The notes under the pieces: model-generated | Told to the model about the DNA's origin: nothing | Seen by the model: only the letters and a program-made list of their open reading frames with translations | Databases searched by the model: none | Part shown: piece by piece, positions 6,846 through 11,060 of the stretch | Position numbering within the stretch: position 1 is the stretch's first letter | Layout of the letters: the number at the start of each line of letters is the position of its first letter | Position numbers and translations under genes: made by a program | Source: Escherichia coli | GTDB taxonomy: Bacteria; Pseudomonadota; Gammaproteobacteria; Enterobacterales; Enterobacteriaceae | Length of the DNA stretch: 64,000 nt | Assembly (NCBI RefSeq): GCF_046105845.1 | Contig: NZ_CP151004.1 | Strand: one strand, 5' to 3'

Positions 6846-7256
6846 GCTTGTCCCCGTTTTTTCTTCCTTTGCTAATAATAATGTCTTTTTCGCTCCGTCA
6901 TCATAACGAAAATCAAACCGCTCAGGTAAAGAAGTGAAAATATTTTGAGTTAATTCTTAAGCTATGATACAAATCAGGCGTGTTCAACTACCGAGGACAA
7001 TTATCATCCGCGATGACGAGAAGCAACACTGCGGATAATTGTAATATTATGGACAATTTGTTCAGGACGTTATTTTCTACATTTACCCATCTTCGTACCT
7101 CATCCACTATCTTGCTCGTAGGTGAGCAGCACTGGCGCAACGCGCTTTAGTCCTTTCTTCTGCTTAAGCTTGCGCTATGCGCGGGGCTTGACCACTTTAC
7201 TTTGGTTTCGCTGAATTAAGCGAAAATTAAAATAATTCTCTTGCAGGAGAAGGACA

Positions 7257-7622
7257 ATGTATATTTATTGGATTTTATTAGGTCTGGCTATTGCTACAGA
7301 AATTACCGGTACGCTGTCTATGAAATGGGCGAGCGTCAGTGAGGGAAATGGCGGCTTTATTTTAATGCTGGTGATGATTTCTCTGTCGTATATATTTCTC
7401 TCTTTCGCCGTTAAAAAAATCGCCTTAGGCGTAGCTTATGCGCTGTGGGAAGGTATCGGTATTTTATTTATTACCTTGTTTAGCGTTTTGTTATTCGACG
7501 AAAGTTTATCGCTGATGAAAATTGCCGGGTTAACCACCCTGGTGGCCGGGATTGTGTTGATCAAATCAGGTACCCGTAAAGCGCGTAAACCTGAACTGGA
7601 GGTGAACCATGGCGCAGTTTGA
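7257..7622 (+). CDS. mdtJ: SMR-family spermidine export protein subunit
   Basis: 121-aa four-helix small multidrug resistance protein; overlaps the downstream paralogue by 14 nt. Confidence 0.9.
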
Positions 7623-8798: not shown

Positions 8799-9073
8799 AT
8801 CACACTCTGGTGGGTAATTATGATTATTAAAAGCAAACCCTCATAAATACTATAGACGGGACGGGATGAAAGTGGGAGTAAAATCAGATAACTACGATCA
8901 GGAAAGATAAAAACGGGCGGCAATCAGTGCGCATAAAATAAGGATGATAAGAATGAACTCAAAGCGATAACGGCCCACCATACTACCCTCCGCTAAAGGC
9001 GGTGCTAAACGTTACCCGCTTAGCACCGTAATTTTCAGGCGCGAGGGGGCGCGCCAGCATTACTGTTGAAAAC

Positions 9074-9382
9074 TTACGCTGCGGGTTGTGCAGCAGGTTT
9101 TGCCGGTTGCTGATGGCTGTGTTTCTTGGCGTGTTTCTTCGCTGCCTGCGCTTTTTGTTCAGGAGCTTTCTGTTCAGCTTTGGCATTTTTATGATGCTTT
9201 TTAGCCGCCTGCGCTTTCTGGGCAGGTGCTGCTTTATGCTGTTTTTTATGATGTGTGGTTTTCGCAGGCGCTGCTTTGGTGGTCGTCGCAGTCGGAGCAG
9301 GTGTGGTCGCAGTCTCTGCAGCAAAGGCAGCAGAAGACAGACCCATAGCAGCGGCAACAACCAGAGCTAATACTTTTTTCAT
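9074..9382 (-). CDS. asr: Acid shock protein (periplasmic, Lys/Ala/His-rich)
   Basis: Start trimmed to ATG at 9380-9382 ([21 protein letters not shown] signal peptide), 102 aa; low-complexity K/A/H/Q repeats typical of Asr. ORF track begins at 9409. Confidence 0.85.
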
Positions 9383-9652
9383 TGTCATACCCTCAATTTG
9401 TTTTTTCATTTAACCCCACTGCGGGGCCGTTGAAATAACTATATCCCTGGGAATGGCAGACTTCCGTGAGTGGTTGGTTTCAGCGTGTAACGATATGTAC
9501 AAACGCTGAATAAATTACAGCATTGATAATAACGTATTGTGACTTAAGGAAAATTTAGCTACCAATAATAGTAGTCTTGATCGTGTTAACTATTTTACTA
9601 CTTACAAAGCGGTAGAATAACTGCGCATCAGTAATAAATGACACACAGCAAA

Positions 9653-9757
9653 ATGAATCCGTTTATTTGGGTACTTATAATCCTGATGACGCTAGATGCG
9701 CTGCGGGAATTGGCTGGCGCTTCGTCTATTTTAGGATGGCTATTAACGTTGGTTTGA
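9653..9757 (+). CDS. Candidate small hydrophobic protein (34 aa; in-frame alternative ATG at 9638 gives 39 aa)
   Basis: ORF MNPFIWVLIILMTLDALRELAGASSILGWLLTLV ending TGA 9755-9757, followed 7 nt later by a strong intrinsic terminator. No convincing Shine-Dalgarno. May correspond to a small protein annotated between asr and ynfM in E. coli, but I cannot confirm the name. Confidence 0.35.
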   Translation: MNPFIWVLIILMTLDALRELAGASSILGWLLTLV

Positions 9758-9763
9758 GCAGGC

Positions 9764-9807
9764 AATAAGTCCGGATGGGTATTTACCGCAGTCCGGACTT
9801 ATTTTTT
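9764..9807 (+). terminator. Rho-independent terminator (plus-strand)
   Basis: 12-bp perfect stem AATAAGTCCGGA / TCCGGACTTATT with a 16-nt loop, followed by TTTTTT at 9802-9807; the reverse complement lacks a U-tract, so it is directional. Confidence 0.6.
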
Positions 9808-11060
9808 CAGACGTGCAGACGATGATGCAAACGCGTCCCGACCAGCAGAGCAATGACCAGCATCAGAGCAATAAATGCGCCGACGCCGTTCCAGCCATAG
9901 TTATGCCAGAAAACACCACCCAGCGTCCCGGCAATACTCGACCCCAGATAGTAACTGAACAGATACAGCGAGGAGGCCTGGCCTTTAGCGCGTTTTGCGC
10001 GGGGGCCGATCCAGCTGCTGGCTACTGAGTGGGCTGCGAAGAATCCGGCTGAGAAGAGTAACATTCCGGCAAAGATCAGCCACAGCGAGCTGAATAAGGT
10101 CATCAATAAACCAAACAGCATAACCCCCGTCGAAAACAACATCACCGGACCGCGCCCATAGCGGGTGGTCATGGTTCCGGCTTTTGGTGAGCTCCATGTA
10201 CCGGTCAAATAAGCCAGCGATAATAAGCCAACCACGGCCTGGCTGACATGCCAGGGGGAGAGCATCAACCGATAGCCGATGTAATTAAACAGCGTGACGA
10301 ACGACCCCATCAGCAAAAAGCCTTCTGCGAACAATAACGGTAATCCCCGGTCACGCCAGTGCAGACGAAAGTTGATAAACAACGTCTTAGGTCGCAGCGA
10401 AGTCGGGCGAAAATGGCGTGATTCAGGGAGGATTTTCCAGAACATTAACGCCGAGGCCAGCGCGAAACAACCGATTGCCGCCAGCGCAATTCGCCAGTTG
10501 AAAAAGTCCGTGAAGACACCGCTAATTAAGCGTCCGCTCATGCCGCCAATTGAGTTGCCGCTGATATACAACCCCATCGAAAAGGCCACGAAACTGGGGT
10601 GGATTTCCTCGCTAAGATAAGTCATGCCAACAGCTGCTACGCCACTTAACGAAAGCCCAATCAAGGCGCGCATAATCAAAATGCCGTGCCAGCTGGTCAT
10701 CATTGTCGAAAGTAACGTACAAATGGAGGCCAACAGTAGCGCCGTGACCATCACTGGTTTGCGACCAATGGCATCGGATAACGGGCCAGTAAACAGCAAA
10801 CCGATAGCCAACATCGCCGTGGAAATGGACAGTGAAATACTACTGTTCGCGGGCGTTAAGCCAAACTCCTGTGAAAGCACCGGAAGGATAGGTTGCACAC
10901 AATAGAGAAGTGCGAAGGTTGCCAGTCCGGCAGAGAACAGCGCCAGGGTGACGCGCATAAATTGCGGCGTACCGCGTTTAATAAATTGATTTGGCTGAGA
11001 AATGCTTTGCTTGTCAGTGTCGCTTGCCGGAGCGCCATCAACAGTTGTAGTACGGCTCAC
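9807..11060 (-). CDS. ynfM: MFS transporter
   Basis: 417-aa 12-TM major facilitator; divergent from the LysR-type regulator gene ynfL. Confidence 0.9.
   Translation of the reverse strand: MSRTTTVDGAPASDTDKQSISQPNQFIKRGTPQFMRVTLALFSAGLATFALLYCVQPILPVLSQEFGLTPANSSISLSISTAMLAIGLLFTGPLSDAIGRKPVMVTALLLASICTLLSTMMTSWHGILIMRALIGLSLSGVAAVGMTYLSEEIHPSFVAFSMGLYISGNSIGGMSGRLISGVFTDFFNWRIALAAIGCFALASALMFWKILPESRHFRPTSLRPKTLFINFRLHWRDRGLPLLFAEGFLLMGSFVTLFNYIGYRLMLSPWHVSQAVVGLLSLAYLTGTWSSPKAGTMTTRYGRGPVMLFSTGVMLFGLLMTLFSSLWLIFAGMLLFSAGFFAAHSVASSWIGPRAKRAKGQASSLYLFSYYLGSSIAGTLGGVFWHNYGWNGVGAFIALMLVIALLVGTRLHHRLHV

Follow-up and report, generated by a model that had tools for sequence, protein, structure and literature searches.

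A conserved small open reading frame convergent with ynfM in Escherichia coli and its candidate product, a small membrane peptide of the NF033695 family

We analyzed a small open reading frame (ORF) that lies on the plus strand between asr and ynfM in a 64,000-nucleotide stretch of Escherichia coli DNA (contig NZ_CP151004.1; this whole stretch is referred to as the window, and positions are counted from its first letter). Comparison of the ORF across enterobacterial genera indicates that it is very probably a real protein-coding gene. We hold with moderate confidence that the data are best explained by a gene that stands on its own and encodes a small membrane peptide belonging to NCBIfam family NF033695. 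RefSeq already contains the sequence, which is therefore not new in itself. The gap is one of experiment and curation, in that the curated MG1655 annotation lacks a peptide that is clearly under purifying selection in Escherichia, Salmonella, Klebsiella, and relatives of these genera.

Results

The reading frame of the small ORF is conserved across enterobacterial genera

An earlier reading of the sequence alone (the sequence-only reading) had described a plus-strand ORF of 34 or 39 amino acids (aa), starting from an ATG at 9653 or from an in-frame ATG at 9638, and this was borne out by the sequence and the ORF listing. The ORF is defined by the following features.

9653..9757, plus strand: conserved coding sequence (CDS) from the second in-frame ATG, 34 aa plus TGA, MNPFIWVLIILMTLDALRELAGASSILGWLLTLV; its first 30 codons are the family core
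9638..9757, plus strand: long form of the small ORF, ATG start, TGA stop at 9755-9757, 39 aa, MTHSKMNPFIWVLIILMTLDALRELAGASSILGWLLTLV
9638..9640, plus strand: upstream in-frame ATG that gives the 39-aa form, Escherichia-specific and probably not a functional start

An ORF of such a length is not significant on its own, the ORF listing giving 60 ORFs of at least 20 aa in the 4 kb around the locus. The small ORF stands above chance because its reading frame is conserved across genera. For this comparison, 80 enterobacterial ynfM loci were sampled, one per species, and the 800 nt downstream of each ynfM were searched with a peptide profile. The ORF was found at 26 of the 80 species loci (29 of 83 when three E. 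coli records are included), in Escherichia (all species sampled), Salmonella, Klebsiella, Raoultella, Kosakonia, Phytobacter, and Pluralibacter, as well as in some Citrobacter and several unnamed Enterobacteriaceae. Frame conservation across the Enterobacteriaceae was the check that the sequence-only reading had set for itself, and the outcome was clearly positive. One record labelled Chryseobacterium sp. 18061 (L061, CACSKA010000003.1) also carries an enterobacterial ynfL-ynfM-small ORF locus, with a YnfM that is 83% identical; this record is probably mislabelled or contaminated.

We examined substitutions by pairwise comparison of 28 distinct 90-nt cores from approximately 10 genera, without a tree-based codon model. 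Diversity at codon positions 1, 2, and 3 was 0.37, 0.14, and 0.53, respectively, with position 3 more diverse than position 2 in 27 of the 30 codons (Wilcoxon p = 1e-5). The proportions of synonymous (pS) and nonsynonymous (pN) differences were 0.70 and 0.235, giving a pN/pS ratio of 0.34, or approximately 0.14 after Jukes-Cantor correction. The five other frames gave pN/pS ratios of 0.55-2.1 and contained stops in 3-28 of the 28 sequences, and the small-ORF frame was the only one of the six to be open in all 28. Conservation was confined to the ORF, the 25-75 nt before it and the downstream sequence being unalignable between genera. The codon periodicity and purifying selection in this frame, together with the unconserved flanks, argue for a protein-coding gene rather than a small RNA (sRNA).

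The conserved core also has a fixed beginning and a nearly fixed length. All copies begin with ATG-AAT-CC (MNP), and outside Escherichia the length is exactly 30 codons, except for C. amalonaticus with 35; the Escherichia form has 34. The counterpart of the ATG at 9638 is a GTG in E. albertii, is out of frame in E. whittamii, and is absent outside Escherichia. In E. coli W4, an AC insertion in the ACACAC run at 9641-9646 likewise shifts the upstream ATG out of frame. Because the ATG at 9638 is limited to Escherichia and is lost or shifted within the genus, the conserved start, as judged from the sequence comparison, is the ATG at 9653 and not that at 9638.

The small ORF encodes a member of a narrow, curated protein family

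The small ORF is already known, as NCBI annotates the exact protein in a curated family without an assigned function. The NCBI Prokaryotic Genome Annotation Pipeline (PGAP) lists it in RefSeq as the CDS WP_001299090.1, a 39-aa "KPN_01571 family protein" found in 5,4xx complete E. coli genomes, and the K-12 strain BW25113 carries the same call (locus tag BW25113_RS26520). The exact peptide sequence is recorded on more than 1000 contigs, an earlier deposit being the hypothetical protein ECOK1_1714 of E. coli IHE3034. The peptide scored 63.3 bits against the NCBIfam model NF033695 (trnsprt_adja_30), for which the curated cut-off is 35, with E = 1.2e-17. The match covers residues 6-34 of the 39-aa form and residues 1-29 of the 30 in the model, and thus runs from the second ATG. 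Length and start agree with the family as well: 34 aa from the ATG at 9653, starting with MNP, and a 30-codon core that aligns gap-free with 24 other distinct sequences. Compared with the rest of the family, Escherichia members have four extra residues at the C-terminus and, optionally, five at the N-terminus. The transporter neighbor implied by the name of the model is present in the form of ynfM, which encodes a transporter of the major facilitator superfamily (MFS).

The annotated length of the protein is not a guide to its integrity. Depending on the genome, PGAP annotates the same intact DNA as 39, 34, or 23 aa, and the 23-aa "hypothetical protein" (WP_211114082.1), which starts at an internal Met, was found in approximately half of a spread sample of genomes. 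We considered disruption of the N-terminus as the origin of the 23-aa calls and rejected it, since the aligned DNA is intact; the short calls are an annotation artefact.

Other searches delimit the family. A word-indexed protein search with the 39-aa peptide returned only Escherichia and Shigella variants, many of odd lengths. A profile search of 1.84 billion representative proteins gave only 51 matches, from which the family is judged to be narrow. The peptide had no match in a Pfam search and none at E <= 10 in a search of PDB sequences. Rfam, searched over positions 8800-10200 at E <= 1, gave only a chance match to a Rubella element (E = 0.99), and neither the name "KPN_01571" nor the peptide sequence occurred in any paper of the literature searched.

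The product is predicted to be a single membrane helix

Within the family, five residues (M1, N2, P3, L11, and A16) never vary, three more (D15, R18, and G22) reach at least 90% conservation, and residue 19 is always E or D. The changes D15 to G and R18 to Q occur together in two lineages (loci L039 and L072). This joint change suggests, as far as the alignment can tell, an i/i+3 intrahelical ion pair between D15 and R18.

AlphaFold2, run with a 25-sequence alignment, predicted one unbroken helix over residues 3-33 with a mean predicted local distance difference test (pLDDT) score of 89.6. The grand average of hydropathicity (GRAVY) was 1.48, and the best 19-residue Kyte-Doolittle window scored 1.66, just over the usual threshold of 1.6. 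Aromatic residues are found at W6 and W29/30, approximately 24 residues apart, a spacing that would suit a helix spanning the membrane. G22, S24, S25, and G28 form a face of small residues. On the basis of these predictions, the product is likely to be a single membrane helix, and the single transmembrane (TM) segment proposed in the sequence-only reading is plausible in view of the AlphaFold2 model and the Kyte-Doolittle score.

Candidate signals for expression flank the small ORF

Candidate signals for transcription were found on both sides of the small ORF.

9613..9618, plus strand: putative -10 hexamer TAGAAT, 35 nt upstream of the ATG at 9653
9764..9803, both strands: hairpin with arms at 9764-9775 and 9792-9803, a 12-bp stem that is 100% complementary, and a 16-nt loop
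9802-9807, plus strand: T6 tract of a plus-strand terminator, with two of its T residues inside the 3' arm

The sequence GTAGAAT is invariant in seven Escherichia lineages while its flanks vary. A -10-like hexamer (variants TAGAAT, TAAACT, CATAAT, TATACT, TATGAT, and TATAGT) is present 35-42 nt before the ATG in most family members and in all three genomic contexts in which the family was found. No record of a transcription start site (TSS) was found for this putative promoter. A motif shared between the promoter region of the ORF and the regulatory region of ynfL-ynfM was sought, and none was found. The leaders of the Klebsiella and Raoultella members carry GGGG/GGAG.

The hairpin begins 6 nt past the stop codon of the small ORF and lies between the two convergent stop codons; the T6 tract ends with a T that is also the opening base of the ynfM stop codon (TCA at 9807-9809 on the plus strand). 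As plus-strand RNA the hairpin has a folding energy of -21.5 kcal/mol (z = -5.1; 0 of 200 shuffled sequences fold as well), and as minus-strand RNA of -22.4 kcal/mol (z = -5.3), the tail on the minus strand being only UUAUUGCC. Judged by its structure, the hairpin is a bidirectional-type terminator for convergent genes, strong on the plus strand and weaker but plausible for ynfM. Thus, the perfect 12-bp stem followed by T6 directly after the ORF stands as it was first described, whereas the claim that it works as a terminator on one strand only does not, the minus-strand fold being equally good. The hairpin was not flagged by a consensus scan for promoters and terminators because the scan allows loops of at most 8 nt and the loop here is longer.

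Among Escherichia species, three stem pairs show compensatory changes that keep the stem, and the T-tract is of 5-6 T residues. Nearly all other genera have a G+C-rich hairpin of unrelated sequence at the same site, usually without a T-tract on the plus strand; the hairpins of Klebsiella, Raoultella, and Kosakonia have no such tract.

Organization of the locus

The gene order in the window is ydgD (-), ydgU (-), asr (-), small ORF (+), ynfM (-), and ynfL (+), with 46 nt between the stop codons of the small ORF and ynfM. The window comes from an E. coli other than K-12: a 501-nt stretch shares 99.6% identity with strain 19KM1831 and 98.0% with BW25113.

9074-9382, minus strand: asr, divergent from the small ORF
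9807-11060, minus strand: ynfM, MFS exporter gene, convergent with the small ORF
8898-8981, minus strand: ydgU, 27 aa, in the asr transcription unit just downstream of asr
approximately 7049-7150, plus strand: mdtU (formerly ydgV), 34-codon upstream ORF (uORF) of mdtJI, inside a longer ORF at 6980-7150 and upstream of mdtJ at 7257-7622

The flanking genes asr and ynfM are both on the minus strand, and the data support the proposal that the small ORF is an independent plus-strand unit coding for a small hydrophobic protein. Every ynfM-side copy of the ORF is convergent with ynfM, with 1-114 nt from stop to stop, whatever the gene on the other side. Across genera ynfM is the only constant neighbor; asr adjoins the ORF only in Escherichia, Salmonella, and a few other genera, and in most genera the other side is taken by a gene for a protein of approximately 494 aa, in which an M32 peptidase (carboxypeptidase) domain is found in the one Pfam-annotated locus. 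Some RefSeq records call YnfM a multidrug efflux transporter; members of its family have also been reported to be dicarboxylate exporters.

A paralogous subfamily is found upstream of leuE

A paralogous subfamily with peptides of 42-44 aa is present in Enterobacter ludwigii, Enterobacter cancerogenus, Lelliottia amnigena, and Huaxiibacter chinensis (loci L088, L089, L091, L094, and L096). There the genes run in the order clsA - yciY - [ORF] - (Exc2 lipoprotein in some) - leuE - yciI - tonB, and the leuE-side ORF is co-oriented with the next gene and lies 12-120 nt upstream of it. Against the LeuE equivalog NF008201, the leuE-side exporter reaches 320 bits, and the leuE-side peptides all score above the cut-off of NF033695. 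The gene found between the small ORF and leuE in Enterobacter ludwigii and Enterobacter cancerogenus encodes a lipoprotein of the Exc2 (entry-exclusion) family.

Variation of the small ORF within E. coli and in sequences with a Salmonella-type N-terminus

A 13-nt deletion (GGCGCTTCGTCTA, window 9716-9728) truncates the peptide to 22 aa (ending in RELAF) from the ATG at 9653. This 22/27-aa allele was found in approximately 81 of 5421 complete E. coli genomes (approximately 1.5%), the other 5342 being without the deletion. The strains that carry the deletion belong to the ST73 lineage and include Nissle 1917, CFT073, ATCC 25922, and clone D, the top matches all being of the ST73 type. Other truncated or frameshifted forms are rare, with 1-105 contigs each versus thousands for the intact forms; in one of them, recorded on 105 contigs, the stop falls after G28 and leaves the conserved core whole. 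The ST73 truncation, as in Nissle 1917 and CFT073, offers a natural loss-of-function comparison.

Some representative sequences with the Salmonella-type N-terminus (MNPIIWVVFTLL; P0098, P0102, and P0095) are frameshifted after DAIR, which suggests a lineage-specific decay there too.

Discussion

Proposed mode of action of the peptide

According to the reading we favor, the small ORF would be transcribed from its own weak promoter, probably with the -10 element TAGAAT at 9613-9618, and translated from the ATG at 9653 behind an A-rich leader that lacks a Shine-Dalgarno sequence. Transcription would end at the hairpin and T6 tract, in a tail-to-tail arrangement shared with ynfM. The product, which has 34 aa in this window and 30 aa in the majority of genera, would fold into a single unbroken alpha-helix of sufficient length to span the inner membrane and presumably inserted there, bracketed by W6 and W29/30 and bearing in its middle the D15-R18 pair, the acidic residue 19, and the small-residue face. 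The conserved mid-helix cluster of D, R, and E and the small-residue face are the reasons for proposing that the helix may pack against a larger membrane protein and modulate it. An exporter is proposed as the partner because the recurrent neighbors, YnfM and LeuE, are exporters and the name of the NCBIfam model agrees; the most probable partners would be YnfM here and LeuE in Enterobacter, Lelliottia, and Huaxiibacter.

That the peptide acts on or modulates an exporter is a tentative proposal, drawn by analogy with AcrZ, MgtS, and KdpF, and we consider it possible but not probable. If it holds for YnfM or LeuE, the few small proteins that tune transporters would be joined by one more. Somewhat more speculative is the broader idea that the KPN_01571 peptides may constitute a new class of trans-acting single-helix regulators of exporters with unrelated folds (YnfM and LeuE), missed by every K-12 small-protein screen through the lack of a Shine-Dalgarno sequence and condition-limited expression.

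Several observations weigh against the favored interpretation, above all against an obligatory partnership with a neighboring exporter. Of the 80 species, 54 carry ynfM but lack the ORF beside it, so that the small ORF does not regularly co-occur with its putative partner gene, and no remnant of the ORF was detected in those 54 loci at the DNA level (DNA profile) or at the protein level. In Huaxiibacter, ynfM lacks the ORF (L046) and the copy is kept beside leuE (L091). A 30-aa member in Cronobacter sakazakii lies in a third context (copD - yebY ... rsmF) with no adjoining transporter, and one metagenomic member is located between a gene for a LysR regulator and a gene of no known identity, again with no transporter. 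YnfM (MFS) and LeuE (LysE family) have different folds. The gene is also dispensable in the ST73 lineage, because the 13-nt deletion truncates the protein there. As to expression signals, neither strand gave a complete sigma-70 promoter in a strict two-hexamer scan, no recognizable -35 element is present upstream of the small ORF, and the E. coli leader (ACACACAGCAAAATG) contains no Shine-Dalgarno sequence.

The published data sets add to these points. Neither the peptide nor the MG1655 coordinates (16709xx-16711xx) were found in the supplements of the Ribo-seq preprint of Stringer et al., of the acid-stress Ribo-seq study (PMC10746267), of the Term-seq study of 3' ends (PMC7815308), of the SMRT-Cappable-seq study (PMC6131387), or of the Salmonella small-protein census (PMC10117436). 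We found no record of the ORF at the level of transcript, ribosome profiling, or proteome; this is absence of evidence only, as the tables are possibly incomplete and low expression would look alike. In the curated MG1655 record (NC_000913.3), ynfM (b1596) and asr (b1597) follow each other with no gene between them. The sequence-only reading mentioned, without being sure of its identity or length, a small protein annotated in this interval in K-12; the MG1655 record disagrees with this and the PGAP call in BW25113 agrees with it, and the protein meant was probably YdgU, MdtU/YdgV, or the PGAP call.

Alternative explanations

Patchy occurrence of a small hydrophobic helix with mid-helix charges among close relatives, with clean absence from many species, could also point to a toxin-like or selfish small membrane peptide of a type I-like kind, one that is tightly repressed, perturbs the membrane, occupies few intergenic sites, and is often lost. 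The weak ribosome-binding site, the absence of the ORF from the searchable expression data sets, the inactivating deletion in one lineage, and the occurrence of the family in at least three unrelated contexts (Huaxiibacter, the only genome checked at both sites, has one copy) would all be in keeping with such a peptide. On the other hand, no antisense RNA gene, minus-strand promoter-like site, or Rfam match was detected, the convergent 3' end of ynfM could overlap the hairpin only, and the 5' untranslated region (UTR), estimated at approximately 25-30 nt, is short rather than long and structured. The gene is single-copy, with stable synteny over approximately 10 genera and under purifying selection, and the peptide matches no PDB chain or Pfam family. 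We consider the toxin-like explanation unlikely. We give similarly little credence to a cis-acting regulatory ORF, for which translation itself would matter: the 5' arm of the hairpin would be covered by a ribosome that has reached the stop codon, so that polymerase reads antisense into ynfM, and in the leuE context the ORF would act as a leader peptide. The small gap between stop codon and hairpin fits this model in Escherichia (approximately 6 nt) and in Klebsiella, Raoultella, Pluralibacter, and several unnamed Enterobacteriaceae (approximately 2-6 nt), but in Salmonella, Kosakonia, and Citrobacter it widens to 24-30 nt or more, and at one locus the stop codon of the ORF abuts that of ynfM, leaving no room for a hairpin. 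The paralogue directly upstream of leuE is co-oriented with it, and a precedent exists a few kb away in MdtU, the uORF that controls mdtJI. Still, conservation extends over all 30 residues and has the character of a TM helix rather than of a short arrest motif near the stop, and the peptide is conserved where no same-strand gene follows.

A non-coding sRNA, or a chance ORF before the terminator of ynfM, is the least probable of the explanations that we considered, and we regard it as very improbable. ORFs of such a size are common by chance, ynfM needs the hairpin anyway, a -10 element followed by approximately 180 nt and a stem-loop with a U-tract is the general layout of an Hfq-type sRNA, and no expression record was found. 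The sRNA alternative, which the sequence-only reading had left standing, nevertheless fares poorly: the codon periodicity and low dN/dS (ratio of nonsynonymous to synonymous substitution rates) are found only in the small-ORF frame, the start ATG is kept and the ORF has a constant length of 30 codons, genera other than Escherichia usually lack the U-tract, Rfam has no match, the flanks are unalignable, and the family recurs at unrelated loci where the peptide is conserved and the flanking RNA is not. A stand-alone gene for an NF033695-family membrane peptide is the explanation that we prefer.

Comparison with known small proteins

AcrZ, MgtS, and KdpF are small inner-membrane proteins that act on AcrB, MgtA, and KdpABC, respectively. 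The KPN_01571 peptide resembles them in being a single predicted TM helix of approximately 30 residues, encoded beside transporter genes in two independent contexts. It has no sequence similarity to them, and binding to a transporter is in this case a proposal from the gene neighborhood and the predicted helix. In addition, the small ORF is convergent with ynfM and not in an operon with it, and most of the species that carry ynfM are without the ORF.

Type I toxins such as TisB, ShoB, IbsC, and LdrD share with the KPN_01571 peptide its size, hydrophobic helix, patchy distribution, and weak translation signals. In contrast to these toxins, the small ORF has no cognate antisense RNA that could be found and no long 5' UTR, and it is single-copy and syntenic across genera.

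Two small ORFs of the same neighborhood also invite comparison. YdgU, like the product of the small ORF, is a small hydrophobic protein, but it is encoded across asr on the other strand, is unrelated in sequence, is annotated in MG1655, and is strongly acid-induced, whereas the small ORF is neither annotated there nor recorded as acid-induced; asr and ydgU are both massively induced by acid, ydgU being the most strongly induced small ORF (PMC10746267). MdtU has the same nominal length as the conserved form of the small ORF and likewise an exporter as its neighbor, and translation of MdtU is required for the induction of mdtJI by spermidine (PMC7815308). MdtU is, however, a leader ORF in the 5' UTR of its exporter genes and is best conserved at its C-terminus, whereas the small ORF is convergent with its exporter gene and is best conserved at its N-terminus.

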